Shown here: positions 3,709-62,348 of the stretch, piece by piece | How the letters are laid out: each line of letters starts with the position of its first letter | Numbering within the stretch: the stretch's first letter is position 1 | From: Gemmatimonadales bacterium | Lineage (GTDB): Bacteria > Gemmatimonadota > Gemmatimonadetes > Gemmatimonadales > GWC2-71-9 | NCBI GenBank assembly: GCA_049680185.1 | Contig: JBAUHI010000032.1 | Coordinates: forward strand, 3,767-67,766 | DNA length: 64,000 bases | Direction: 5' to 3' | Program-made: the position numbers and the translations under genes | Notes under the pieces: generated by a model | Seen by the model: the letters and a program-made list of their open reading frames with translations, nothing else | What the model was told of the DNA's origin: nothing | Database searches by the model: none

Positions 3709-5544
3709 TCATTCGACCGGTTCGAACGCCCAGTTGAACACAGACACGAGGAGCAACGCCGCCCCCGCCAGGATGATCGGAAGCTTGACCCCGACCAGGA
3801 AGCCAACGAGGAAGATCAGGATCCCCCACGCCGCGAAGAACGGCCAGTAGCTCGACGGGGGCATGTGGATCCCCGCTCCCGATCCGCGGACCGGCTCGGG
3901 CAACGTGCCGCCGGCCTTCCGCTTGGCCGCCCAGAGCGGATCGCGTCCGTCGACCGTCGGGATCTGCTCGAAGTTGTGCGGCGGCGGCGGCGAGGGAATG
4001 GACCACTCGAGGGTGGCGCCGCCCCACGGATCGGCCGGGACCGGTGTCGTCGGGCGGGTGCGCCAGGTCTTGATGATGTTGATCAGGAAGACCAGGAATG
4101 AGGTGCCCAGGATGAGCGACCCGGCGGTGGCGACCGCATTCCAGAACGAGAACCCGAGTCCGGTCGGGTAAGTGTAGACCCTGCGTGGCATCCCGTTGAG
4201 TCCCAAGAAATGCATCGGGAAGAACGTCAGGTTGAACCCGATCAGCATGAGCCAGAAATGCACCTTGCCCAAGCGCTCATCCAGCATCCGGCCGAACATC
4301 TTGGGGAACCAGTAATAGGCGCCCGCCGTCAGCGCGAAGATCGACCCGCCGAAGAGCACATAGTGGAAGTGCGCCACGACGAAGTAGGTGTCGGTCTGCT
4401 GCAGGTCGGCCGGGGGCACCGCGTGCATCACGCCGGAGAGGCCGCCGATGATGAACATCGCGATGAACCCGAGCGCGAACATCATCGGCACCCGGAAGCG
4501 GAGACTGCCGCCCCAGATGGTGGCGATCCAGTTGAAGATCTTGACGCCGGTCGGGATCGCGATCAACATCGTGGTGAGCGAGAACACCGTGTCCGCGATC
4601 GGTCCCATCCCGACGGCGAACATGTGGTGGCTCCACACCCCGAACCCGAGGAACGCGATGAAGATGCCGGAGAACACCATCGCGGTGTAGCCGAAGATCG
4701 GCTTGCGCGAGAAGACCGGGAGCACTTCCGATACGATCCCGAAGGCCGGCAGGATCAGGATGTACACCTCGGGATGTCCGAAGATCCAGAACAGGTGCTG
4801 CCAGAGGACCGGATCGCCACCACCGGTCGGCACGTAGAAGCTGGTACCGAAGAATCGGTCCATCATCAGCAGGATCAGCGCGACCGTGATGACCGGGAAC
4901 GCCAGCAGCAGCAGCACCTGCGTGATGAGGCTCATCCACGTGAAGATCGGCATCCGGAGGAGCTTCATCCCGGGCGCCCGCATGTTGATGATCGTCGTGG
5001 CGAAATTGACCGCCGCCGCCAGCGAGGCGATGCCCAGCATCTGGAGGCCGAGGAGCCAGAAGTCGATGTTGATGGCCGGCGAATACTGGATGCTCGTCAG
5101 GTTGGCATATCCGAACCAGCCGGCGTTCGGCGCCGCGTGGAACAGGAAGCTCGAGTTGATGAACAGCCCGCCCAGCAGGAACACCCAGTAGCTGAAGGCG
5201 TTGAGCCGGGGGAACGCCACGTCCCGGGCACCGATCTGCAGCGGGATCATGAAATTGAAGAACATCGCCGACAACGGCATCACCGCGAGGAAGATCATCG
5301 TGGTGCCGTGCATCGTGAAGACCTGGTTGTACACCTCGGGCGACAGGAACGTGTTGTCCGGCCGCCCCAGCTGCCAGCGGAGCAGCAGCGCTTCGAGCCC
5401 ACCGATCAGGAAGAAGAGGAACGCGGTCGCACCGTAGAGGATGCCGATGCGCTTGTGATCGACGGTGGTGATCCAGCTCCACACGCCCGTCGCCTCGTGG
5501 GAGGCGCCGGCGGCGTGGTCGCGGGGAAGGGCGGCAGTGGCCAT
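3709..5544 (-). CDS. ctaD: cytochrome c oxidase subunit I
   Basis: 611 aa. Heme-copper oxidase signature WIFGHPEVYILILPAFGIVSEV, HHMFAVGM and FVVAHFHYVLFGG. Two extra C-terminal helices. Confidence 0.95.
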   Translation of the reverse strand: MATAALPRDHAAGASHEATGVWSWITTVDHKRIGILYGATAFLFFLIGGLEALLLRWQLGRPDNTFLSPEVYNQVFTMHGTTMIFLAVMPLSAMFFNFMIPLQIGARDVAFPRLNAFSYWVFLLGGLFINSSFLFHAAPNAGWFGYANLTSIQYSPAINIDFWLLGLQMLGIASLAAAVNFATTIINMRAPGMKLLRMPIFTWMSLITQVLLLLAFPVITVALILLMMDRFFGTSFYVPTGGGDPVLWQHLFWIFGHPEVYILILPAFGIVSEVLPVFSRKPIFGYTAMVFSGIFIAFLGFGVWSHHMFAVGMGPIADTVFSLTTMLIAIPTGVKIFNWIATIWGGSLRFRVPMMFALGFIAMFIIGGLSGVMHAVPPADLQQTDTYFVVAHFHYVLFGGSIFALTAGAYYWFPKMFGRMLDERLGKVHFWLMLIGFNLTFFPMHFLGLNGMPRRVYTYPTGLGFSFWNAVATAGSLILGTSFLVFLINIIKTWRTRPTTPVPADPWGGATLEWSIPSPPPPHNFEQIPTVDGRDPLWAAKRKAGGTLPEPVRGSGAGIHMPPSSYWPFFAAWGILIFLVGFLVGVKLPIILAGAALLLVSVFNWAFEPVE

Positions 5545-7417: not shown

Positions 7418-7655
7418 GAGGAGGAGACGAGAGGAGAGGAGGCGATGGACGTGAGGAGGAGGTAAGGAATCAATGGTGGACTCGTGAGTCGCCGGCGACG
7501 TCATCCTGACACCGAGAGCCGCGCGGCCGAAGGATCGGCCAATCTGCCGATCGATCCTTCGGCCCTTCGGGCCTCAGGATGACGTGCTCGGAAAAGCCTC
7601 CCGCTCGCCTCTTCGCCTCCTCCCCTCTTCCTGCCTTTTCTCTTGATTCCCCCTC
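7418..7655. repeat. nested palindrome: purine-rich arm, GTCATCCTGA/GAAGGATCGG hairpin, pyrimidine-rich arm
   Basis: 7418-7469 is GAGGAGGAG-type purine tract. 7498-7538 is the left half of the core element and 7547-7585 its reverse complement. 7597-7655 is a CCTCCTC-type pyrimidine tract. It fills the gap between convergent genes. Confidence 0.85.
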
Positions 7656-7660
7656 GCGCG

Positions 7661-8299
7661 CTACTCGATCGGCACGTCGAACCGTACCTCGCGCTCGACC
7701 GGATACGAATAGTGCCACCACTCCATGTCGTACTGCTGGAACCCTTCCGCTTCCATCGCATGGCGGAGCAGGTCGCGGTCCGTGCGAGCCAGTCCGGTCG
7801 CGTTGGCCTCGTGGGCCTCGGGTGAGAAGGTGTCGAAGGGCGTCCCCATCTCGAGCGGACGCCCGGACTTCAAGTCGCGTAGGGTCAGGTCGATCGCCAG
7901 GCCCAAGTTATGGCGGCTCCGGCTGGCGATGTAGCCACCGGTCACCAGTTCCGGTCGGCCTACCCGCGAGGCCCACGCCACCATCTCGGCGGTGGCGCGG
8001 GCGGGCCGGTAGCTGTCGTAGATGAGGAGTCCGAGGCCCTGCCGGCGGAGCCGTGCCTCGACCCGCACCAGTGCGGCAGCGGCCTCGCGTCGAGTGAAGG
8101 CGCGATCGGCGGTGTATCCGGGAAGAGGCGCACCGGTGAAGTTGGAGTCGGTACGGTAGCGCAGGTCGACTGTGATGGTCGGATCGAGGGTGCGAACGTC
8201 GACCATCAGTGAATCGAATACGCGCTGATCGACCACAAGCGGCGTGGTGTCGGCAGGGGACTGCGGCGCGACGGCGAGGAGCAGGAGGAGAGGGAGCAT
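7661..8299 (-). CDS. D-alanyl-D-alanine dipeptidase (M15D, VanX/DdpX-like), secreted
   Basis: In-frame ATG 8299 gives signal-like MLPLLLLLAVAPQSPA. Zn-site motifs SRHNLGLAIDLTL and EWWHYSY. The longer ORF start at 8380 reads through the tandem repeat. Confidence 0.8.
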   Translation of the reverse strand: MLPLLLLLAVAPQSPADTTPLVVDQRVFDSLMVDVRTLDPTITVDLRYRTDSNFTGAPLPGYTADRAFTRREAAAALVRVEARLRRQGLGLLIYDSYRPARATAEMVAWASRVGRPELVTGGYIASRSRHNLGLAIDLTLRDLKSGRPLEMGTPFDTFSPEAHEANATGLARTDRDLLRHAMEAEGFQQYDMEWWHYSYPVEREVRFDVPIE

Positions 8300-8329
8300 G
8301 GGGGGAATATGGCTCGGATCGCCCCGGAC

Positions 8330-8496
8330 GTCATCCTGAGCAGAGCGAAAGATCGGCTGGCCTTCAGGGGTCCTCGTCATCCTGAGCAGAGCGAACGATC
8401 GGCTGGCCTTCAGGGGTCCTCGTCATCCTGAGCAGAGCGAAGGATCGGCTGGCCTTCAGGGGTCCTCGTCATCCTGAGCAGAGCGAAGGATCGGCC
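8330..8496. repeat. tandem array, 46-bp unit x 3.6
   Basis: Units at 8330, 8376, 8422 and 8468: GTCATCCTGAGCAGAGCGAANGATCGGCTGGCCTTCAGGGGTCCTC. They are identical except unit position 21 (A, C, G, G). The last unit is truncated 3 nt before the GIY-YIG stop codon. Confidence 0.95.
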
Positions 8497-11599: not shown

Positions 11600-11618
11600 C
11601 GGACGATCTGCGCGTGAC

Positions 11619-11704
11619 ACGTCATCCTGAGGACGCGCAGCGTTCGAAGGATCGGCCCATCACCTAGCCGATCCTTCGGCGCCTCCGGCGCCTCAGGATG
11701 ACGT
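11619..11704. repeat. compact hairpin copy of the GTCATCCTGAG/GAAGGATCGG element
   Basis: CACGTCATCCTGAGGACGCGCAGCGTTCGAAGGATCGGCCC..loop..GCCGATCCTTCGGCGCCTCCGGCGCCTCAGGATGACG. Followed by a pyrimidine tract at 11719-11747. Confidence 0.9.
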
Positions 11705-11755
11705 TTCGTCGAGCTGAGTCCTCCTCACCTCTTCCCCTCCTGTCCCCAGACTTCG

Positions 11756-12106: not shown

Positions 12107-12660
12107 TGTGCTACCTCCTCCGTCTCGCGAGCCCGCTCACCTTGAGCGAGATCCGCTCGATGCTTCCCGCCGGGATGACCGCCGACCTGCGCGACGCCTC
12201 CGAACTCCGCCCCTGGCGCACCCTGCTCCCCGAGACCCAGACCGTCGCCGCCCTGCTCCACGGCGGTTGCTCTTGCGACCTCGTCCGTCCCGCCCCTCCG
12301 GACGCCAAGATCGACGGCGCCGAGATCCGCAGGCGTTACCGCGCGCTCGGCGCCAGCCGGACCACGGTCATCGATGCACTGGATCGCCACGCCCGGAACC
12401 GCTCCCTGCGGCAGTACGCCCCGGGACACTGGCCAGTGGCACTCAATCGCTTCGTGGCCGAGCATGCCAGGAACGCCGGGGACGCGGGGACAGGATACCT
12501 GCTGGAGTATGAGGCGGATGGACGAATGGACGGATGGGCGGATGCTCTCGGGCGCGTCCCCACCCGACCATCCGTCCATGCGCCCATCCGCCTGGCCGTA
12601 CCCGTCCGCCACGACCACGCATGGCTGGTGCCTGACCGGGTGATCATCGTGACTCCGTAG
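12106..12660 (+). CDS. hypothetical protein
   Basis: 184-aa ORF translationally coupled to the upstream gene. No motif recognised. The C-terminal region contains an in-frame palindromic repeat (12513-12592). Confidence 0.5.
   Translation: MCYLLRLASPLTLSEIRSMLPAGMTADLRDASELRPWRTLLPETQTVAALLHGGCSCDLVRPAPPDAKIDGAEIRRRYRALGASRTTVIDALDRHARNRSLRQYAPGHWPVALNRFVAEHARNAGDAGTGYLLEYEADGRMDGWADALGRVPTRPSVHAPIRLAVPVRHDHAWLVPDRVIIVTP
12513..12592. repeat. GGATGG-type palindrome inside a CDS
   Basis: GGCGGATGGACGAATGGACGGATGGGCGGATG at 12513-12544 versus CCCGACCATCCGTCCATGCGCCCATCCGCC at 12563-12592, an imperfect reverse complement. Confidence 0.8.
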
Positions 12661-22040: not shown

Positions 22041-22155
22041 GGTGGGCGAAGAGCGGGCGAGGAGCGGGCGAGGAGCGGACGGGAAGCGGGCAACAAGCGG
22101 GCGTAGTGGGGGCGGTGATCATGCACACCTACTCTGCCCGCTTCTTGCCCGCGCC
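22041..22155. repeat. GAAGAGCGGGCG-type oligomer tract with short complementary arm
   Basis: 22041-22105 is GGTGGGCGAAGAGCGGGCGAGGAGCGGGCGAGGAGCGGACGGGAAGCGGGCAACAAGCGGGCG. 22133-22155 is CTGCCCGCTTCTTGCCCGCGCC. It fills the gap between convergent genes. Confidence 0.8.
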
Positions 22156-25448: not shown

Positions 25449-26594
25449 ATGCCTTCGTTCCTCCACACCCTCCTCGACTCCCCTGGCCCCTCCGGCTTCG
25501 AGACCGCTCCCGCTCGCCTCTGGCGCAAGGAGGCGGAGTCATTCGCCGATGACGTCCACGGCGATGTCCACGGGAATTCGTACGCGAGCGTCTTCGCAAC
25601 AGGCGAGAAGCGGGTGAAGAGCGGGCGGAAAGCGGGTGGACCGACTGGCACCGCCCACGACTCACGACCCACGACGCCGACGATCATGTTCGCCGGCCAC
25701 ATCGACGAGATCGGCCTGATGGTGGTCCACATCGACGAGAAAGGGTTCCTCACCTTCGACGGCATCGGCGGGTGGGACACCCAGGTCTTCGTGGGGCAAC
25801 GCGTCACGATCCTTGGCCGCAAGGGCCCCGTTCCCGGCGTCATCGGCAAGAAGGCGATCCACCTGATCGACAAGGACGATCGCGACAAGGTCTCCAAGAC
25901 AGACGACCTCTGGATCGACATCGGCGCCCGGAAGAGGGCCGAGGCGGAAAGCAAAGTCCGGGTGGGAGACGCCGGGGTGCTCACCTCGAAGGTGGAAGAA
26001 CTCCCCAACGGCAGGCTCGTAAGCCGAGCACTCGACAACCGCGTCGGCGCCTATGTGGTGCTCGAAGCGCTGCGCTTGATCGCCAAGGGTAAGTCACGCG
26101 CCACCCGCCACCCACCACAGGTGAACGTGACGGCGGTGGCAACGACGCAAGAAGAGATCGGTTACACCGGTGGCGGCGCCCGCACCTCCGCCACCACACT
26201 CGACGCCACGGTCGCCATCGCGGTCGACGTGACCCATGCCACCGACTATCCCGGCATCGAAAAGCGGAAGCACGGCGACTTCAAGCTCGGTGGCGGTCCG
26301 GTCCTCTCTCGCGGCTCCGCGGTCAATCCCGCCGTGTTCGATCTGCTGGTGGCGGCGGCAGAGCGGGAGAAGATCCCCTACACCGTGGAGGCGGCCCCCC
26401 GCGCCACCCATACCGACGCCGACAACATCTTCACCGCCCACCGCGGCGTCGCGACGGGCCTCGTGAGCGTCCCGCTCCGGTATATGCACTCGCCCAACGA
26501 GATGGTGGCCATGGAAGACCTGGAGCGCGCCGCTCGACTCCTGGCCGCATTCGCTAGGAGCGTGGGGCCGGAGACGAGTTTTGTGCCTCGGTGA
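25449..26594 (+). CDS. M42-family aminopeptidase (FrvX/TET-like)
   Basis: ATG 25449 (MPSFLHTLLDSPGPSGFE). Contains FAGHIDEIGLMV, ALDNRVG and TTQEEIGYTGG. Carries an unusual ~24-codon insertion at 25605-25676. Confidence 0.85.
   Translation: MPSFLHTLLDSPGPSGFETAPARLWRKEAESFADDVHGDVHGNSYASVFATGEKRVKSGRKAGGPTGTAHDSRPTTPTIMFAGHIDEIGLMVVHIDEKGFLTFDGIGGWDTQVFVGQRVTILGRKGPVPGVIGKKAIHLIDKDDRDKVSKTDDLWIDIGARKRAEAESKVRVGDAGVLTSKVEELPNGRLVSRALDNRVGAYVVLEALRLIAKGKSRATRHPPQVNVTAVATTQEEIGYTGGGARTSATTLDATVAIAVDVTHATDYPGIEKRKHGDFKLGGGPVLSRGSAVNPAVFDLLVAAAEREKIPYTVEAAPRATHTDADNIFTAHRGVATGLVSVPLRYMHSPNEMVAMEDLERAARLLAAFARSVGPETSFVPR
25605..25676 (+). repeat. in-frame repeat-like insertion inside the M42 gene
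   Basis: GAGAAGCGGGTGAAGAGCGGGCGGAAAGCGGGTGG..CACCGCCCACGACTCACGACCCACGAC. The left part matches the oligomer tract at 22041-22105. Encodes EKRVKSGRKAGGPTGTAHDSRPTT. Confidence 0.6.
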
Positions 26595-26775
26595 GCTTGC
26601 AGCTATCGGCTGTCAGGTGCTCTAGAAACACACGAGCCTCCGTGGACCTCCACGGGGGCTCGCTGATTTAGTTCTGCCTGATAGCTGATAGCTGTTAGCT
26701 GATATCTGTTAGCTGCTAGCTGCTCGCTGCTCGCTGCTCGCTGCTCGCTGCTCGCTGCTAGCTGCAAGCTGCAAG
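26595..26775. repeat. AGCTGATAGCTG/GCTGCTC oligomer palindromic element
   Basis: The outermost GCTTGCAGCT (26595-26604) pairs with AGCTGCAAGC (26764-26773). Central hairpin GAGCCTCCGTG-gacctc-CACGGGGGCTC at 26635-26661. Long right arm of CTGATAGCTG and (GCTGCTC)n at 26678-26775. Confidence 0.85.
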
Positions 26776-28332
26776 CTACCCGCCCGCCTTTGCCACCGCC
26801 TCGCGCACATCCTTGTCGCTGTCCAACGCAAGTTCCGCCAGCGCCGCCTGCGCCACGGGGCCGCCGGCCAGCTGCAGCCCCTCGATGGCCCAGATCCGCT
26901 GCGCCACCGGCTTCCGCTTGAAGAGCTTTCCGCCGGGACTCGCCATCCGGATCAGCGCTTGCACCCCCTCGGCCGATCCGCTCCGCCCCACCGAGTAGCA
27001 CACCTCGCGAAGGACCTCGGGCACGCTCTCTTCTTCCAGGATCGACACCAACCGGAGTCCGAGCGCCGGGAGCTTCTTCCCGTCGATCACCAACACGGCC
27101 TGCAAGCGCACCCCCGGCGCTGGATCCCGGAGTGCCGTGCGCAGTGGCTCGACGGTGCCGGGGGTGCCGATCTTGGCGAGCGCCACGATCGCGGCGCGCT
27201 TGACCCGCTCATCGGGGTGGGTCACATGTCGCGCCAGCACCGGCACCGCCGTCACGAGCTTGAGCTCACCGCACAGCTCCGCCACGTTCCGGATCACGAA
27301 CCAGTCGCCATGTTCCAGCGTCTTGACGACGACATCCGATCCGTGGGCCGACTCGACCAGCGCGTCAAAATAGTGGCGCCGCTCGATGATGGTGGGTGCT
27401 GAGGCCAGAAGGTCGAGCAACACGTCGGTGGCACTGTCGCCCATCCGGGCCATCACCAGCAATGCGTCGCGCTTGCGCTCGGGTTGCGGCACGAAACGCG
27501 CGATCTCCTCCAGCGTCCTCCGTGGGAGGAGCCGCTTGAGCGCGATGTTGTACATCCGTGCCACTTCCTTCGACCCCGCCTGCGGCTCCGCCTCCACCAC
27601 CCGCACCGCCGCACGGAGGATCCCGTCCCAGTCGGCCTTGAGCGCCGCGGCGTCAGCGCTCCCGGCCAACTCGCTGAGCAAGTGGGTCACGGCGGCGCCG
27701 GCGGGATCCGCGGCGATCGCCAGCGAGAGCTCGTCGATCCGGGCGGTCACGTCGTTGGCCGAAGGGACATAGTGCATCATCCCGCCGTCCTCGGGTGTCA
27801 TCCCACCAGGGCCGAGTGCCGGCAGCTCGACCGAACCACGCGGCGGTGCCGACCCGATCACCTTCCGTGGCACCTCTCGTGGCGGGCCTGCCGTCGCTGC
27901 ATCGGTGGACCCCAGCGCTGACACGGCCGGGCCCGACGACTCTGCCGCCGCCAGCCGGAACTGGCTCGCGCCCGGCTCGCCGACCGCGGTGATGAACTCT
28001 TGGATGTGACGATAGGTGCCGGCGGGCGCCGCAAGCGCCCGCAGGAGCGAGAGGAGCGGTCCCGCGCCGGTGCCTTCCGGCAGGATGATCTCGCCGACGC
28101 CGTGCTGCAGCATCTGGCGAGCGAACGCCGCTGCCTCGGTGGCTTCTTCCGGTGCCAGGATGCCCTGGTACGCCAGCCCCTCGGACGTGGCGCCCAACTC
28201 CACCGGGCTCACACCCAGCGTGGTCACGAGCGCGCGGAACGCCGCCTTGTGCTCCTCCTTCGCGCCAGGACGATCGCGCAGAAGGACGACGACATTCCAG
28301 ATCTCGGAGACCACCGACAGGGGAGCGCTCAT
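26776..28332 (-). CDS. HEAT-repeat protein
   Basis: 518 aa. The C-terminal half has PVLARHVTHPDERVKRAAIVALAKIG, LRDPAPGVRLQAV and DSDKDVREAVAKA repeats. The N-terminal half is unassigned. Confidence 0.65.
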   Translation of the reverse strand: MSAPLSVVSEIWNVVVLLRDRPGAKEEHKAAFRALVTTLGVSPVELGATSEGLAYQGILAPEEATEAAAFARQMLQHGVGEIILPEGTGAGPLLSLLRALAAPAGTYRHIQEFITAVGEPGASQFRLAAAESSGPAVSALGSTDAATAGPPREVPRKVIGSAPPRGSVELPALGPGGMTPEDGGMMHYVPSANDVTARIDELSLAIAADPAGAAVTHLLSELAGSADAAALKADWDGILRAAVRVVEAEPQAGSKEVARMYNIALKRLLPRRTLEEIARFVPQPERKRDALLVMARMGDSATDVLLDLLASAPTIIERRHYFDALVESAHGSDVVVKTLEHGDWFVIRNVAELCGELKLVTAVPVLARHVTHPDERVKRAAIVALAKIGTPGTVEPLRTALRDPAPGVRLQAVLVIDGKKLPALGLRLVSILEEESVPEVLREVCYSVGRSGSAEGVQALIRMASPGGKLFKRKPVAQRIWAIEGLQLAGGPVAQAALAELALDSDKDVREAVAKAGG

Positions 28333-33128: not shown

Positions 33129-33348
33129 GAAGCGATCGGCTAACGGCGGCTATCAGCTATCGGCTATCAGCTATCGGCTGACAGCCAACTGCTCTGGCTA
33201 TCGGTTGTCAGCGATCAGCGGGCCCGAACGCGAGCAAGCCCCCGGCGTCTACGTCGGAGGCTTGGTTGTCACAGGAGCGTGCTGATAGCTGATGGCTGAT
33301 AGCTGATAGCTGCTAGCTCCTAGCTGATAACTGCTAGCCTCGAAGACC
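33129..33348. repeat. AGCTGATAGCTG oligomer palindromic element (second copy of family)
   Basis: Left arm 33131-33219 (CTATCAGCTATCGGCTATCAGCTATCGGCTGACAGCC...). Central hairpin AAGCCCCCG..CGGAGGCTT at 33236-33263. Right arm 33281-33339 (GCTGATAGCTGATGGCTGATAGCTGATAGCTG...). Confidence 0.85.
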
Positions 33349-41289: not shown

Positions 41290-41490
41290 GTGAACGATGA
41301 AAAGTGAAAGGTGAACTGGATCTGGATGCGCTCGGCGGCCCGCTGATCACACGTCATCCTGAGGGGCCTTCAGGCCCCGAAGGACCGGCCTGCATAACGA
41401 CCCGATCCTTCGCTCTGCTCAGGATGACGTGCCTGTCCCGTCGGTCCCTTCCGATCCCACCCGTTCACCGTTGACCGTTTACCGTTCACC
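41289..41490. repeat. nested palindrome: GTGAAC-type outer arms around a GTCATCCTGAG/GAAGGA hairpin
   Basis: Outer left arm 41289-41319 is GGTGAACGATGAAAAGTGAAAGGTGAACTGG. Inner element at 41351-41430. Outer right arm 41457-41490 is CACCCGTTCACCGTTGACCGTTTACCGTTCACCC. Confidence 0.85.
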
Positions 41491-41493
41491 CAG

Positions 41494-43557
41494 ATGCCCA
41501 ACCGCCTCTCCACCGCCCGCTCAGCGTACCTCACGTCGGCCGCACATCAACCGGTCCACTGGCACCCGTGGGGCCCGGAGGCATTTGCCGCCGCGCGGTC
41601 GACCGGCCGTCCCATCCTGCTCGACATCGGCGCCGTCTGGTGCCACTGGTGCCACGTGATGGACGGCGAGAGCTACGAGGATCCGGCGCTCGCCGGGCTC
41701 CTCAACACCGAATTCGTGTGCATCAAGGTGGACCGTGACGAGCGGCCCGACATCGATGCGCGCTATCAGCGTGCCGTCCAGGCGCTCACCGGGCAGGGCG
41801 GCTGGCCGCTCACCGCGTTCCTCACGGCACAGGGCGAAGTGTTCTACGGCGGCACGTACTTCCCGCCCGAAGGACTCCACGGACGCCCAGGCTTTCGCTC
41901 GGTGCTCACCGAGGTGGCCCGCATCCACCGCGAGGAGCAGGGCCGGGTCGAGGCGCAAGCGCTCGCCATCAAACGGGCGCTGGCGCATGCCGAAGATCCC
42001 GCCGGCCCCATCGACCCGACCAACGGACTCCTCGACACGGCCGAAGCGGAGCTTGCCCGCCATTTTGACGCGCGGCACGGCGGGTTCGGCCGGGCGCCGA
42101 AATTCCCCCACCCCGCGGCCATCTCGTTCCTCATCGATCGCTGGTATGACTCCGGCCGCTCCGACCCCGGCGCGATGGCCCGTGACACCCTGCGCGGAAT
42201 GGCCCGAGGCGGATTTCACGACCAGGTGGGCGGTGGATTCCATCGGTACAGCGTGGACCCGGAATGGATCGTCCCGCATTTCGAAAAGATGGCGTATGAC
42301 AACGCCGAGCTCCTCAAGGCCTATCTCGATGGCCACGCCGCGTTCGACGATCCGTACTTTGGCGACGTTGCGCGGGACACCCTGGCCTGGATCCGGGAGG
42401 TGCTCGCCGATCCTGATGGCGGGTTCGGCACCAGCCAGGACGCCGACGTCGGCCTGGAGGACGACGGCAACTACTTCACCTGGACGATCGACGAAGCGCG
42501 GGCGGCGCTCACCGCCGACGAGTTCGAGGTCGTCGCGGCCCACTATGACATCGGCACCGCTGGCGAGATGCACCACGACCCCGCACGCAACGTGCTGTGG
42601 ATCGCCGAAGACACCCTCGCCATCGCGCATCGGACCGGACGACCGGCACCGGTGGTCGCCGACCTTCTCTCCCGCGGCAGGACAAAGCTCGCCGCGGCAC
42701 GACGCCTCCGACCTGCACCGTTCATCGACCGCACCCGCTACACCGGCTGGAACGCGATGCTCGCGAGTGCACTGCTCAGTGCCGCAGCACATCTCGACGA
42801 TCCTTGGGCCCGCACCCATGCGCTCCGAACGCTGGAACGGATCGGCCAGGAGTCACCCGATCCCGATGCCGTGCTGCACGTCACCGGCGGGATCAGCGGC
42901 CTTCTCGACGACCAGGTGCAGGTGGCGGCAGCCGCACTCGATGCCTACGAGACCACCGGTACTGAGCATTGGCTCGCATGGGCGGAAGCGATCATGGACC
43001 GGGTCTGGCGCGACTACCGCGACGAGGCCGCGGGAGGGCTGTTCGACATCGCGCATGCTCGCGGCGGGGAGGGACTCCTCCCCGAACGCACCAAACCCAT
43101 CCAGGACAGCCCCACCCCATCACCCAACGGGGTCGCCGCACTCACCTATGCCAGGCTCGCGGCCCTGACCGGCAGAGCGCACTGGCAGACGCGCCACCTC
43201 GAGCTCGTCCGGACGTTCGGCGGACAGGCGGCCGGACTCGGACTCTTCGGCGCCACCTTCCTCCGTGCGCTCGAATGGTCGCTCCTCCCGATGACGCACC
43301 TGGTCGTCGTCGGCCCCAAGGGGCACGCCGAGTCCGACCGGATGCATCGGTGGGCGTTGACGACATTCATCCCGCGCAAGGTGGTCCACCGCCTGACGAG
43401 CATCGCCGGCGTGCGCCCACTGCCACCGGCCCTGCAGGCGATGGTCAACGGGACGACCCCCCGTGCGTATGCCTGTCGGGGCGAGACCTGCCAGGCTCCC
43501 GCCGGCGATGATGCCACCTGGGCGGCGACCCTCGCGGCGCTGCGTCCCGTACACTAG
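41494..43557 (+). CDS. thioredoxin-domain protein, YyaL/DUF255 family
   Basis: 687 aa. WCHWCHVM in a thioredoxin-like N-terminus (ILLDIGAVWCHWCHVMDGESYED), followed by an alpha/alpha-toroid-like remainder. Confidence 0.85.
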   Translation: MPNRLSTARSAYLTSAAHQPVHWHPWGPEAFAAARSTGRPILLDIGAVWCHWCHVMDGESYEDPALAGLLNTEFVCIKVDRDERPDIDARYQRAVQALTGQGGWPLTAFLTAQGEVFYGGTYFPPEGLHGRPGFRSVLTEVARIHREEQGRVEAQALAIKRALAHAEDPAGPIDPTNGLLDTAEAELARHFDARHGGFGRAPKFPHPAAISFLIDRWYDSGRSDPGAMARDTLRGMARGGFHDQVGGGFHRYSVDPEWIVPHFEKMAYDNAELLKAYLDGHAAFDDPYFGDVARDTLAWIREVLADPDGGFGTSQDADVGLEDDGNYFTWTIDEARAALTADEFEVVAAHYDIGTAGEMHHDPARNVLWIAEDTLAIAHRTGRPAPVVADLLSRGRTKLAAARRLRPAPFIDRTRYTGWNAMLASALLSAAAHLDDPWARTHALRTLERIGQESPDPDAVLHVTGGISGLLDDQVQVAAAALDAYETTGTEHWLAWAEAIMDRVWRDYRDEAAGGLFDIAHARGGEGLLPERTKPIQDSPTPSPNGVAALTYARLAALTGRAHWQTRHLELVRTFGGQAAGLGLFGATFLRALEWSLLPMTHLVVVGPKGHAESDRMHRWALTTFIPRKVVHRLTSIAGVRPLPPALQAMVNGTTPRAYACRGETCQAPAGDDATWAATLAALRPVH

Positions 43558-58995: not shown

Positions 58996-59040
58996 GTGGG
59001 TCGGATGGGCGGTTGGGCGGATGGGCGGATGGACAGTGAG
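58996..59040. repeat. GGATGGGCGG oligomer tract (half element)
   Basis: GTGGGTCGGATGGGCGGTTGGGCGGATGGGCGGATGGACAGTG. Same oligomer family as 12513-12544. No clear complementary arm nearby. Confidence 0.75.
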
Positions 59041-59097: not shown

Positions 59098-59820
59098 ATG
59101 ACCGCCGTACCCCTCTCCGAAGCTGCCGCCGACGCGCCTGCCCCACCGGCACCGCACACTGGCGTACGCCGCCACCACTGGCTGGTGCGCCTGACGCATT
59201 GGATGAACGCGATCGTGCTCACAGGGCTGATCGCGAGCGGCCTCCAGATCTACGGCGCGTTCACCCGCTTCGGGCTCAAGGGCGGGATGCGCATCGGCCC
59301 CAATCCGTTCGAAGGGTATGGCTTCCCGCACTGGATGCGGCTCGGCGGCTGGCTGGCTGGCGGCCTGAATTGGCACTTTGCGCTCGGCTGGTTCTTCCTC
59401 TTCTCCGGCCTCGCCTACGTCCTGTATCTGGGCATCTCCGGCGAATGGCGATCCCTCCTCTTTCGTCCCCGCGACATCGGCCCAGCGGTCCAGATGCAGC
59501 TGTACTATCTGGGCCTCCGGAAAACGCACCCGCCACAGGGAAAGCACAACGCCCTCCAGAAAGGTGCGTACACGTTCATCGTGGCACTCGGCGCCCTGTC
59601 GGCGTTGACCGGCGTCGCGATCTACAAGCCGGTCCAGTTCCATTGGCTCACGGCACTCTTCGGCGGCTACGAGTTCGCCCGGTACTGGCACTTCGTGGCG
59701 GTCTGGGTCTTCGTGGCCTTCACGCTCACCCACGTGGCCCTCGTCTTCGCCGTCGATCCGGCGTCACTGCGTGCCATGCTCACCGGCTGGTACCGCGGGA
59801 GGTTCCCGAATCATGACTGA
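59098..59820 (+). CDS. b-type cytochrome membrane subunit
   Basis: 240 aa. HHWLVRLTHWMNAIVL and other conserved His residues in four to five helices. Overlaps the downstream molybdoenzyme gene by 8 nt. Confidence 0.75.
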   Translation: MTAVPLSEAAADAPAPPAPHTGVRRHHWLVRLTHWMNAIVLTGLIASGLQIYGAFTRFGLKGGMRIGPNPFEGYGFPHWMRLGGWLAGGLNWHFALGWFFLFSGLAYVLYLGISGEWRSLLFRPRDIGPAVQMQLYYLGLRKTHPPQGKHNALQKGAYTFIVALGALSALTGVAIYKPVQFHWLTALFGGYEFARYWHFVAVWVFVAFTLTHVALVFAVDPASLRAMLTGWYRGRFPNHD

Positions 59821-60523
59821 GCCCCTCACTCGACGCGACCTGTTCCGGATGGGCCTCGTGGCGGGCGCAGGCGCGCTCGTGTCCGGCTGCGGATGGGACG
59901 GCGGCCCCCTCAAGCCCGGGCTCGCCGCGATGGCGCGGCTCAACGACCGGGTGGGCGAGGCGCTCATCTCCCCGCACCGCCTGGCCCGGGAGTATCCGGT
60001 GTCGGAGCGCTCTGGGAGCGCATTTCCGATGTACTACGTGAGCGACGAGCTCCCGGTGCTTGCCGACCCCGCAGGGTGGCGCCTCACGGTCGCAGGGCTG
60101 GTCGCCAACCCGCTTACGCTCACGCTGGCCCAGATCCAGGCCCTCCCGCGGACGACGTACACCGTCAAGCACCATTGCGTGGAAGGGTGGACGGCCATCG
60201 CGACATGGACCGGCGTGCCACTCACGACGATCACCGCGATGGCGGCACCGACGCGAGCGGCCCGGTACGTGCGGTTCGACTCCTTCGATGCCGGGTACTA
60301 CAACGGCTGGGATCTGCAGACGGCGATGCATCCGCAGACGATGCTGGCCTACGGGTATAACGACCAGCCACTGAAGCCGGATCACGGCGCACCGCTCCGG
60401 CTCTACTCCCCGCTCAAGCTCGGATACAAGCTGACGAAGTTCGTCACCACGGTGACCTTCACCGCCGATCGCCCCGGAGGCTACTGGGAGGACCAGGGAT
60501 ACCCGTGGCTGGGAGGGCTGTGA
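59813..60523 (+). CDS. molybdopterin-dependent oxidoreductase (sulfite oxidase/YedY-MsrP-like fold), Tat lipoprotein
   Basis: ATG 59813 gives MTEPLTRRDLFRMGLVAGAGALVSGC, a twin-Arg motif plus lipobox. Contains VKHHCVEGWT and GAPLRLYSP. Confidence 0.8.
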   Translation: MTEPLTRRDLFRMGLVAGAGALVSGCGWDGGPLKPGLAAMARLNDRVGEALISPHRLAREYPVSERSGSAFPMYYVSDELPVLADPAGWRLTVAGLVANPLTLTLAQIQALPRTTYTVKHHCVEGWTAIATWTGVPLTTITAMAAPTRAARYVRFDSFDAGYYNGWDLQTAMHPQTMLAYGYNDQPLKPDHGAPLRLYSPLKLGYKLTKFVTTVTFTADRPGGYWEDQGYPWLGGL

Positions 60524-60632
60524 TACCGGTGGACGGTGAAGAGTGAACAGTGAACAGTGAACGGGGGCCTCCGTGGGATCTGCCAAGCTCCCGTTCACCG
60601 TTCCCCGTTCACCGTTGACGCCCTTGCCCGTT
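60521..60632. repeat. GTGAACGGTGAA-type palindromic element, copy 1
   Basis: Begins with TGATACCGGTGGACGGTGAAGAGTGAACAGTGAACAGTGAACGGG. Loop contains GCCTCCGTGG. Right arm is CCCGTTCACCGTTCCCCGTTCACCGTTGAC. Confidence 0.9.
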
Positions 60633-60874
60633 CATCCCTCTTCCAGTTCCACCGTCGCAGCTCCTGACCCGCCATACCTGACCCGGACGATCCAGGCCCG
60701 GCAGCAGACCTCGCAGTCCTCGACGTACTCCTGGGCGGTCCCGCCGCCCGGATCCAGGGCAATGACGCACGACGCCCCGCACCAGGGACACTGCACCTCC
60801 GCCTCGGTATCGGCGGTGCCGTCGCCCAGGGGGAACGCATCGTCGAGTGGGTCGTCGTCGGAAAAGTCGATCAT
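60632..60874 (-). CDS. CPXCG-motif cysteine-rich small protein
   Basis: 80 aa. VQCPWCGASCVIALDPGGGTAQEYVEDCEVCCRAWIV matches the CPxCG...EDCxVCC family pattern. Confidence 0.75.
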   Translation of the reverse strand: MIDFSDDDPLDDAFPLGDGTADTEAEVQCPWCGASCVIALDPGGGTAQEYVEDCEVCCRAWIVRVRYGGSGAATVELEEG

Positions 60875-60993
60875 GATACCGGTGAACGGTAAACGGTGAA
60901 GGGTGAACAGTGAACGGTGAACGGGGCGCCCAGCGGATCTTCGTGGGCGACCCGTTCACCGTTTCCATTTCACCGTTCACCGTTCCCGTTCAC
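60874..60993. repeat. GTGAACGGTGAA-type palindromic element, copy 2 (direct repeat of copy 1)
   Basis: Begins with TGATACCGGTGAACGGTAAACGGTGAAGGGTGAACAGTGAACGGTGAACGGGG. Right arm is CCCGTTCACCGTTTCCATTTCACCGTTCACCGTTCCCGTTCAC. Confidence 0.9.
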
Positions 60994-61007
60994 GCTATAT
61001 TCGCTCA

Positions 61008-62348
61008 ATGCGCCGTCCACTGACCGTCGCCAGCGGCCTCACGGCCGCGATGCTGCTCGCCCGGGCGTTCGGCACCCCGGCGCTGACCGATCCGACCGGC
61101 GCCCCGCTCCCCGCGTCACTCCACCTGTACTTCCCGCCCCTCAACATCCTGCTTGCTCCGGCCTTCGACCTCTGGGACGGCGTCTCGATGCTGGGGATGC
61201 GCCAGCTGGTGGCGTTCTTCCTCTGGAGCGCGGTGGCGATCGTGGTGTGGCGGGTGGGCGGACAGGCGTACAGGCGCACGGGCGCACGGGCCGCGTCCGC
61301 GCAGCGTCGGATCGTCCGTGCACTGTTCACTGAGCTGGCGATCATCGTCGGCGGCGTGTTCGCCCTCCTGCTCTTCGGGCTCGTAGGCCTGGTGTGGCAC
61401 CGACCGATGGTCTCCCTCGCAGGCGTGCCCGCCGGCCAGCTGGTGGTCGACCTGCACACCCACACCAATGTCTCACACGATGTCCACGGGACGCTGATGC
61501 GCGGGTTCGACGCCGACGCGGCCCGACGCTGGCACCAGCGCGCCGGATTCGACGCGTTCTTCGTCACCGACCACAACCTCATCGACGGGATCCCCGCCAA
61601 CGGCGGCCCGGTCGACGCCACGCCCGCCCTCTGCCCCGGCGAGGAGGTGAGTGCCGCCGACCAGCACGTGGTCCTCCTCGGCAACACCACCCTGGTGGAC
61701 AACCACGATTACGGCGACTCCCTCCCCGGGATCCTGCGGCTCTTCCGGGACGCGGGCCCGCGCTATGGTGCTGTGGCGATCGCCTCGATCCCGGAATACG
61801 ACAAGAACCATTTCCACGACCTGACCACGTTCGCCGATGCCGGGGTGCGCGGGTTCGAGATCGTCAACGGGGCGCCCAAGGCCAATGAGCTTACGCTGGC
61901 GCACCGCGATACGGTCATCGCGTTGGCCCGTGCACGGGATCTTCTGCTCTTGGGCGTGAGCGACAGTCACGGATGGGGTGCCACGGTGGAGGGGTGGACG
62001 CTGGTGCGGGTGGGTAGCGCACCGACGCACGGAGGCTCAGACGCTCAGGAAGCACCGGGAGCGGTCATTCCGAGCGTCCGAGCGTCAGTGCGCCTGTCCA
62101 CTTTCCCGCCGGTCTGCACCGCGATCCTGACCGCCCTTGAGCGCGGCTACGACGCCACCCAGATCGCCGCCCGCCACCGGCTGCGTCCCGATGCGTGGTG
62201 GCCCCGCTGGCTCACGCCGTTCGCGGTGGTCTGGGAGGGATGGCGGGCCATGGGCCTGGCCCAGGCATTCGGCTGGCTGCTGTGGATCTGGGGACTCGCA
62301 CTCATTGCGGCCCACCGCCCGGTCACTTCGTCAGGCGACAGACCTTGA
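61008..62348 (+). CDS. membrane-anchored PHP-domain-like metal phosphoesterase
   Basis: 446 aa. N-terminal and C-terminal TM helices. VVDLHTHTNVSHD and FFVTDHN motifs. Confidence 0.65.
   Translation: MRRPLTVASGLTAAMLLARAFGTPALTDPTGAPLPASLHLYFPPLNILLAPAFDLWDGVSMLGMRQLVAFFLWSAVAIVVWRVGGQAYRRTGARAASAQRRIVRALFTELAIIVGGVFALLLFGLVGLVWHRPMVSLAGVPAGQLVVDLHTHTNVSHDVHGTLMRGFDADAARRWHQRAGFDAFFVTDHNLIDGIPANGGPVDATPALCPGEEVSAADQHVVLLGNTTLVDNHDYGDSLPGILRLFRDAGPRYGAVAIASIPEYDKNHFHDLTTFADAGVRGFEIVNGAPKANELTLAHRDTVIALARARDLLLLGVSDSHGWGATVEGWTLVRVGSAPTHGGSDAQEAPGAVIPSVRASVRLSTFPPVCTAILTALERGYDATQIAARHRLRPDAWWPRWLTPFAVVWEGWRAMGLAQAFGWLLWIWGLALIAAHRPVTSSGDRP

Follow-up and report, generated by a model that had tools for sequence, protein, structure and literature searches.

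Heptamer-array palindromes on both sides of a CPXCG zinc-ribbon gene in a Gemmatimonadales bacterium: a probable case of concerted evolution of adjacent hairpin repeats around an ancestral gene

Long-hairpin miniature inverted-repeat transposable elements (MITEs) include Correia/NEMIS, RUP and Nezha, and the cyanobacterial STRR sequences are a family of tandem heptanucleotide repeats. The palindromes known as REP and BIME in Enterobacteria and Pseudomonas are mobilised by RAYT Y1 transposases (PMC3333891, PMC12306157, bioRxiv 10.64898/2026.03.23.713779). Other tandem families are the TAACTGA direct repeats of Beggiatoaceae (PMC4679880) and the G-rich heptamers of Xanthomonas and Nostoc (PMC4692102), while selfish organelle palindromes have been described in the mitochondrial and plastid DNA of Volvox (PMC2670323) and, as repetitive hairpin-forming elements, in sponges (PMC2800124). 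Here we analysed a stretch of 64,000 nucleotides from an uncultured Gemmatimonadales bacterium from soil (contig JBAUHI010000032.1, positions 3,767 to 67,766; hereafter the window, in whose numbering all positions are given), in which a small gene for a CPXCG zinc-ribbon protein lies between two palindromes built from heptamer arrays. The order is molybdoenzyme gene (plus strand), copy 1 of the palindrome, CPXCG (minus strand), copy 2 and a gene for a PHP-like membrane protein (plus strand). Our analysis indicates that this bracket is probably the outcome of concerted evolution of adjacent hairpin repeats, the palindromes being later than the gene, and not a mobile cassette.

The two flanking palindromes, with the coordinates and layout of the original prediction, were borne out. 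Copy 1 measures 112 nt (60521-60632) and runs from the TGA stop of the molybdoenzyme gene, whose three bases (60521-60523) are its first three, to the TCA (60632-60634) with which CPXCG stops on the minus strand; copy 2 measures 120 nt (60874-60993), begins on the last base of the CAT (60872-60874) that is the CPXCG start and leaves 14 nt between its end and the ATG of the PHP-like gene (61008). The arms of both copies are tandem GTGAAC(G/A) heptamers, and together the copies fill the spacers on both sides of CPXCG. Read on the plus strand, the left arm of copy 1 (60521-60566) consists of TGA TAC and then CGGTGGA CGGTGAA GAGTGAA CAGTGAA CAGTGAA CGGGG, followed by a loop (60567-60589) and a right arm of CCGTTCA-type units (60590-60634) that ends on TCA; in copy 2 the left arm (60874-60926) includes CGGTGAA CGGTAAA CGGTGAA GGGTGAA CAGTGAA CGGTGAA CGGGG, the loop occupies 60927-60949 and the right arm, again of CCGTTCA-type units, 60950-60993. 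Tandem Repeats Finder returned period 7 in all four arms, and unit number varies both in same-strain assemblies and in contigs of the type of L010 (relatives are denoted by L numbers), so that the arms qualify as variable-number tandem repeats or simple sequence repeats.

Allowing at most one mismatch, the window contains 16 occurrences of GTGAACRGTGAAC, where 0.08 would be expected: 12 in copies 1 and 2, three in an element at 41290-41493 and one, isolated, at 61318-61330 inside the PHP-like gene. TGATACCGGTGRACGGT is found in two places only in the window, namely the two copies. Their left arms are linked as direct repeats over 44 nt (86% ungapped) and their right arms over 30 nt (87%). Both copies are predicted to form long hairpins, more stable by far than folds of shuffled sequence: copy 2 folds at -79.9/-81.2 kcal/mol (z about -10.9/-10.5) and copy 1 at -53.8 kcal/mol on the plus strand and -59.8 on the minus strand (z -2.75/-3.96); copy 1 pairs slightly better in minus-strand RNA because plus-strand A.C mismatches become G.U there. 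The two copies had been described as sharing a non-repetitive lead-in and as running alike through a loop. The lead-in is indeed shared, but since CGGTG(G/A)A is already a heptamer unit, its true non-repeat part is only TGATAC, of which TGA is the stop codon in copy 1; likewise each copy has a loop, but the loops do not resemble each other significantly (19/31, p about 0.04).

Like REP and BIME, the elements lie between genes, form hairpins, recur within a genome and are substrates of rearrangement, and they are often located at 3' ends and between convergent genes, with proposed roles as 3'UTR regulators or terminators. However, a REP is one hairpin of 20-40 nt that has a GTAG-type head and follows a single consensus throughout the genome, whereas the elements here are 110-250 nt long and made of tandem 6-11-nt units that vary among both sites and lineages. 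Sizes were 112-204 nt in the window and up to ~245 nt in relatives, and the loops were unrelated. Copies 1 and 2 start with TGATACCGG and have no GTAG, a negative that applies to these two copies, some other arrays beginning GGTAGTGGG (58990; L009, L015). Pfam and NCBIfam scans took in the genes around the CPXCG locus only, and no RAYT was identified among them.

The tandem heptamer families share with the present elements the 7-nt unit, the intergenic position, the many loci, the several unit families, the variable copy number and a regulatory role that is at most supposed. Nevertheless, they are direct arrays, whereas here an array pairs with a complementary array as a long hairpin, and many unit sequences coexist in one genome. 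MITEs are similar in their length of about 100-200 nt, intergenic location, co-transcribable and stable stem-loops and copy families; they differ in having defined terminal inverted repeats, target-site duplications and a full-length consensus, where our elements have periodic arms, unrelated loops and piecemeal change. A comparison of an empty (L099) and a filled (L003) copy 1 site revealed no duplication.

The juxtaposition of a small open reading frame (ORF) and an imperfect palindrome also recalls integron cassettes, whose attC sites are about 60-140 nt long and carry the core consensus RYYYAAC ... GTTRRRY. GGTGAAC and GTTCACC do not fit this consensus, there are no R'/R'' cores, a whole-window search of Rfam at gathering thresholds was without a match, no integrase appeared among the neighbouring genes, and the gene has its own conserved upstream region and is vertically inherited. 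Finally, the organelle palindromes are also hairpin repeats that populate intergenic DNA, apparently spreading and homogenising locally, although they belong to eukaryotic organelles and to other sequence families and their arms are not made of tandem oligomers.

The age of the gene at this locus was assessed by scanning one genome per species with the alignment of the PHP-like protein, which yielded 16 Gemmatimonadales or Gemmatimonadota loci. In 14 of them tblastn places CPXCG directly upstream of the PHP-like gene and in divergent orientation, and an exact-protein look-up returned the same arrangement in L002, L003, L009, L098, L099 and L223. What fills the two spacers is very variable. In L099 (molybdoenzyme 87%; these percentages give identity to the protein of the window) the molybdoenzyme/CPXCG spacer is 13 nt and the CPXCG/PHP spacer 36 nt; L003 (88%) has a 123-nt GTGAAAA palindrome in the former and again 36 nt in the latter. 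L098 and L025 (86%) carry palindromes of ~245 nt with GGAGAA/GGGAAAA units before CPXCG and GTGAACG palindromes of 208 and 142 nt after it, and L223 (78%) has a 96-nt GGTGAGC palindrome and, in the CPXCG/PHP spacer, a one-armed remnant. L009 and L015 have no molybdoenzyme gene in the locus and show arrays of CCGCCCGA (L009) and GGAGTGA (L015) on that side, with GGGTGTT/GGGTGCT on the other. In the more distant L016, L019, L021 and L013 (60-65%) the molybdoenzyme and CPXCG stop codons face each other 3-7 nt apart, and neither spacer holds an array palindrome.

Thus unit types turn over at orthologous sites among relatives, whereas position and orientation of CPXCG are kept down to 45% identity of the PHP-like protein, palindrome-free genomes included, and CPXCG identity declines in step with that of the flanking genes. 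As the gene is in place in relatives that lack palindromes or have flanks of other units, it predates the palindromes; CPXCG is ancestral at this locus and vertically inherited. The original prediction had the gene inserted together with one palindrome as a cassette, or inserted into a palindrome, and had named the same layout between unrelated flanks as the outcome that would speak against this. Such is the layout in L003, L098, L025, L223, L009 and L015, and other relatives keep it without long palindromes, so that neither form of insertion holds.

The origin of the likeness between the two palindromes became apparent when the parts of copy 1 were compared separately. Its left arm, lead-in included, is identical to the left arm of copy 2 at 44/46 positions with a gap of one 7-nt unit, and the variant units after the lead-in come in the same order in both. 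Against the complement of its own right arm it scores 34/44, and against eleven other arms of the GTGAAC family, from the window or from relatives, 68-86%. The nearest relative with a complete copy 1 is L010, whose molybdoenzyme is 93% identical; the copy 1 loop matches that of L010 at 22/35 positions (p about 5e-4), and the right arm can be aligned both to its L010 counterpart and to the end of the L002 contig. Copy 1 is thus orthologous to L010 in loop and right arm, while the left arms of copies 1 and 2 are paralogous. The shared lead-in had been taken as a sign of duplication of a whole unit and not of independent oligomer expansion; duplication is supported for the left arm but does not extend to the whole unit.

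At the position of the copy 1 left arm, L010 has ~90 nt more, in the form of a purine-rich GGGAGAA/GTGAAAA array. Purine-rich arrays are found at this site in L003, L098, L025, L100 and the outgroup L011 too, indicating that the left arm of the window is the derived state; moreover, the arms of copy 1 match poorly in L010 and well in the window. The lead-in belongs natively to copy 2 and has no such antecedent at copy 1, so the copying ran from copy 2 to copy 1. The sequence of events that we propose would start from a copy 1 ancestor whose units were purine-rich (GTGAAAA, GTGAGAA, GGGAGAA). Its CPXCG-proximal arm would have become CCGTTCA-type in the ancestor shared by the window and L010, and in the lineage of the window the molybdoenzyme-proximal arm would then have been overwritten by a tract of ~46 nt that came from copy 2, namely from its left arm at a distance of 350 bp. 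This overwriting would have brought in the TACCGGTG lead-in and restored the pairing of the arms. Local gene conversion or a replication template switch, with the outer end of the tract at the stop codon, may have been the mechanism.

Copy 2, in turn, is an old GTGAACG-type element. Arms of this type with shared variant units occupy the CPXCG/PHP spacer in L002, L010, L025, L098 and L100, and in the alignment GGTGAACAGTGAACGGTGAACGGG is common to the copy 2 arms of the window and L098. Its outermost units are native upstream sequence of CPXCG: the window reads ...TTTACCGTTCACCGGTATC-ATG in the sense of the gene, the reverse complement of the lead-in TGATACCGGTGAACGGTAAA, and TTACC(G/C)TTCA is present in 8/8 members of the clade, with TACC(G/C)T 11 nt before the ATG in 7/8 and 10 nt in L002. 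This set includes L099 and L003, which have only the 36-nt spacer, and L223, which has only the one-armed remnant. The conserved region, which is the copy 2 lead-in, covers 60875-60891 on the minus strand (an 11-nt spacer plus TACCGT at 60886-60891), and TACCGT is probably a -10-like element with a very short leader. On the other side, TATATT (60996-61001, plus strand), 6 nt before the ATG, is the probable -10 box of the PHP-like gene, whose transcript may be leaderless. A box 6-7 nt before the ATG recurs in relatives as TATATT (L002, L010) or TACCAT (L025, L098, L100, L003), and distant relatives carry GGGTATATTC in its place. In L099 the two boxes stand back to back and form a mini-palindrome, GGTAAC|CGGTTAC, at whose centre the long palindromes of other members exactly sit.

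The arrays are unstable. An independent assembly of the same strain (L001, 99.86% identical over 4.9 kb) differs only by one heptamer, plus one G, at 60903-60926 in the copy 2 left arm; either unit number is truly heterogeneous or the difference stems from assembly. Seven contigs whose molybdoenzyme protein is identical to that of L010 (L091-L097) have GGGAGAA two or four times and CCATTCA two or three times in copy 1, and the majority break off within the array. In L002 the copy 2 loop (1815-1846) matches the loop at 60927-60949 at 26/32 positions in reverse complement and at 22/32 forward, and its better match in reverse complement points to loop inversion.

Some relatives have no CPXCG. In L100 (molybdoenzyme 82%) the molybdoenzyme stop is followed by a single 127-nt palindrome (972-1098) and the ATG of the PHP-like gene; this palindrome combines a purine-rich outer left arm of copy 1 type with a complete element of copy 2 type, including what in L098 comes straight after the start codon of CPXCG. 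Between its molybdoenzyme and PHP-like genes L011 has one palindrome, of GTGAGAA units (3778-4000), and a JGI contig (3300056388, P0126) shows a 154-nt gap at this place with no CPXCG gene call, a statement that concerns gene calls only; the spacer in the three relatives is 127-226 nt. In the molybdoenzyme tree L100 falls within the CPXCG-carrying clade, ((window, L010), (L099, L003)), L100, (L098, L025), and L011 is sister to L013, which has CPXCG. The synteny proposed as a check of insertion, with one palindrome between molybdoenzyme and PHP-like genes, therefore exists in L100 and L011, but as these lineages nest among carriers they represent losses. The direct repeats created by the arrays probably make the enclosed gene deletable, and deletion between the flanking arrays is plausibly what caused these losses.

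Several points weigh against the picture drawn so far. Informative positions are few and most of the 44/46 identity is the repeat unit itself; outside the units the lead-in adds only TAC, the TGA stop being present in relatives as well, and the L002 contig ends in the array and so does not cover the molybdoenzyme-proximal arm. L002 is the closest relative by CPXCG identity (90%), and its copy 2 lead-in differs (GATGATGGGAAG), which indicates that the lead-in evolves quickly and leaves L003, L099 and L223 to carry the polarity. As the arms are only 79-85% complementary, selection for a hairpin is not demonstrated. The molybdoenzyme tree is a neighbour-joining tree with no support values, and L100 and L011 are short-read metagenome assemblies, in which flanking direct repeats could give a false join. 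As to expression signals, stems are present but no T-run follows either copy on either strand, and a consensus scan for intrinsic terminators gave nothing at copy 1; a consensus scan for sigma-70 promoters gave no convincing one, since the -10 of the only -35/-10 pair overlaps the CPXCG ATG and is thereby incompatible with the conserved N-terminus.

Among other explanations, transposition of a non-autonomous MITE- or REP-like GTGAAC element, inserted independently at both spacers and at 41290, seems unlikely to us. It would be in keeping with the three copies of this unit family in the window and the GTGAAC-type array that L010 has in addition at position 8105, with the recurrence of other unit types in the window and with the varying length of filled spacers between relatives. 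Yet the orthology of the copy 1 loop and right arm to an L010 element that has a left arm of another type means piecemeal replacement; the empty and filled sites inspected (L099, L003) show neither target-site duplication nor defined termini; the sequence of the outer copy 2 units is native to the promoter-proximal region and occurs in palindrome-free relatives; the loops of family members are unrelated; and no transposase was identified among the few window genes scanned.

We would likewise give little weight to independent expansion in situ, by slippage from similar seeds (GTGA at the stops, GTGAACGGTAA at the CPXCG promoter), in which the likeness of the copies, TGATAC included, would be convergence plus chance. 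The ancestral copy 1 units GTGAAAA and GTGAAGA are one or two substitutions from GTGAACA/GTGAACG and GAGTGAA survives in both; with TGA being a stop codon only TAC is left to explain; unit number changes fast, and arbitrary heptamer arrays are common elsewhere. However, the copy 1 left arm is nearer to the copy 2 left arm than to its own partner or to any orthologue, the variant units stand in the same order behind the same lead-in, and the ~90 nt more of a quite different array in L010 speaks for replacement, not drift. Insertion of CPXCG with a palindrome between the molybdoenzyme and PHP-like genes, or of the gene into a single palindrome, may be dismissed as highly improbable: the direct orientation of the copies with one arm 96% identical, and the CPXCG-less L100, L011 and JGI contig, would suit it, but the gene keeps its place and orientation at great distances with an identity that tracks its neighbours, L100 is nested among carriers, flanks differ between relatives, and the window gave no Rfam match nor the scanned genes flanking CPXCG an integrase.

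Concerted evolution of the neighbouring hairpin repeats is consequently the reading we retain as probable, and the result at this locus is mainly corrective, in that a cassette-like layout turns out to be an old gene whose spacers were colonised and then homogenised by hairpin repeats. One clade provides a series of no palindrome, mini-palindrome, long palindromes of different units, mismatched arms, converted arm, inverted loop and gene loss, and thereby shows, for a phylum that has been little studied, how tandem arrays able to form hairpins originate, turn over and alter gene content.

Regarding what the elements do, hairpin-prone tandem arrays would at the DNA level slip, invert their loops and recombine. 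As RNA, copy 1 would most likely provide both convergent transcripts, of the molybdoenzyme and of CPXCG, with a 3' stem-loop that lacks a U-tract and terminates them or protects their 3' ends, and copy 2 would lie between two back-to-back core promoters. It is possible that the copies are U-tract-less terminators of the kind found in high-G+C bacteria. We provisionally regard the arrays as resulting mainly from a mutational process, slippage together with hairpin-guided copying in spacer DNA; that those at convergent gene ends also serve as 3' stem-loops lacking a U-tract is conceivable, and the least secure part of this view. The right arm of copy 1 is 87% complementary to the left arm of copy 2, but a long-range pairing that would circularise the CPXCG mRNA was rejected, as the minimum-energy fold of the 486-nt transcript region keeps two local hairpins. 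A supply of stops in three frames by the TGAs of the heptamers was likewise dropped, because the units GGGTGTT, CGGATGGA, GGGAGAA and CCGCCCGA have no stop, and so was a GGATC loop motif, seen in several loops but neither in L002 nor in copy 1 of L010.

The bracket is not the only structure of its kind in the window. A third GTGAAC-type palindrome (41290-41493, plus strand) fills the spacer between two plus-strand genes, folds at -95.8 kcal/mol (z -6.3) and has a REP-like element within the loop, where it was inserted. The TGATACC lead-in is missing from this palindrome; on the right it ends with CCGTTTACCGTTCACC, which stands 3 nt before the ATG at 41494 and, as reverse complement, matches the left end of copy 2. 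TACCGT is also present at 41477-41482, 8 nt before that ATG, at the end of this palindrome. The variant unit GGTAAAC of the arrays may double as a -10-like box.

Palindromes of other units in the window are a CGGATGGA array at 12512-12593, an 11-mer array at 22041-22155, CTGATAG/CTGCTAG repeated 14 times at 26589-26782 and GCTATCA/GCTGATA at 33146-33338, most such elements extending from one stop codon as far as the following stop or start; a one-armed array lies at 58997-59036. Some unit types recur in the window, with GCTGATA, CGGATGG and the related 11-mers AGCGGGCG/AGCGGGTG seen twice each. Relatives carry further units of 7-10 nt, among them the loci L009, L012, L015, L017, L019, L024 and L025; units seen in the window or in relatives also include GGGTGTT, GGTGACC, GGACGGAGA, GGCGGTAA and a 10-mer. 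No array palindrome was present in 9-kb samples of L013, L016, L018 and L020-L023.

With many palindromes of one architecture in the window and in relatives, the CPXCG bracket is one instance of a general feature of the lineage. The class, an array of 6-11-nt units followed after a loop of ~10 to >100 nt by a complementary array, often filling the whole spacer, is common in Gemmatimonadales. Such intergenic array palindromes are widespread in the order and were apparently undescribed before; a full-text literature search gave no description of them in Gemmatimonadota. If the class is general, its arrays would break short-read contigs (L001, L002 and L091-L097 end inside arrays) and inflate ORF calls, and might explain transcript ends in a high-G+C lineage without canonical terminators. 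A still broader generalisation, which we offer tentatively and regard as possible but doubtful, would be a self-renewing class, seeded from native sequence (back-to-back -10 boxes, or facing TGA/TCA stops), growing by heptamer-scale slippage, copying arms from partner or neighbour, flipping loops and recurrently deleting the genes it brackets, of which the CPXCG locus would show all steps in one clade.

Viral contigs were also considered. Among IMG/VR contigs (L224-L347) an exact triple heptamer was found in 24 for GTGAACG, in 35 and 8 for the composition-matched controls GAGTCAG and GGATGCA, and in 57 for GCTGATA, another unit of the window. GTGAACG as a special sequence was rejected on these counts; exact triplets are frequent in viral contigs with any unit, and heptamer arrays as such are widespread. 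Within 13 kb the viral contig L255 holds at least 12 CTCCTGA-type arrays plus two built from a different unit, and GTGAACG and GCTGATA occur together in L238; the arrays of a few viral contigs are palindromic (L230, L233, L245, L247). A metagenome scan for the lead-in GATACCGGTGRACGGT gave at least 120 matches, none of which, among the matches listed, adjoins a heptamer array, and they are taken as chance matches.

A second and unrelated repeat family consists of palindromes on CGTCATCCTGAGC...GAAGGATCGG at 7500-7590, 8329-8495, 11616-11707 and 41340-41440 of the window, in one case with 3.6 repeats of a 46-nt unit and in another inside the loop of the third GTGAAC palindrome, with no match in Rfam. 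It is also present in L018, L020, L024 and L025, and in L018 and L020 it fills the molybdoenzyme/CPXCG spacer.

The genes around CPXCG code for cytochrome b, the molybdoenzyme, the PHP-like protein and a methyltransferase. The CPXCG gene itself (60632-60874, minus strand, 80 aa) belongs to Pfam PF14255 (Cys_rich_CPXCG; E 2.6e-15, 56.5 bits against a cut-off of 25.2), with CPWCG and CEVCC in its translation, and 496 homologues were found. The molybdoenzyme is a molybdopterin oxidoreductase of MsrP/YedY-like type (59813-60523, plus strand; PF00174, Oxidored_molyb, E 3e-37), scoring E 2.7e-28 against the NCBIfam MsrP model, under the curated cut-off. A cytochrome b561-type membrane subunit (59098-59820, plus strand; PF01292, E 4.4e-28) precedes it as its upstream partner and may have an MsrQ/YedZ-like role; the pair recurs in relatives. 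The two genes overlap (59771-59820), by 8 nt if the molybdoenzyme starts at the ATG at 59813 and by 50 nt if at the GTG at 59771; the 8-nt overlap is also seen in the called genes of relatives and is consistent with translational coupling of an MsrPQ-like pair.

The PHP-like membrane protein (61008-62348, plus strand), the divergent partner of CPXCG, was aligned with its orthologues and has an HTHTNVSHD motif. It gave no Pfam match and a weak one to CehA/McbA metallohydrolase (E 5e-8, under cut-off). Inside its coding sequence there is a tandem array of GGCGCACA-like octamers, at 61257-61291 in the window and at 4249-4281 in L010; the array coincides with an indel stretch of the protein alignment (columns ~88-110), so that arrays shape coding sequence too.

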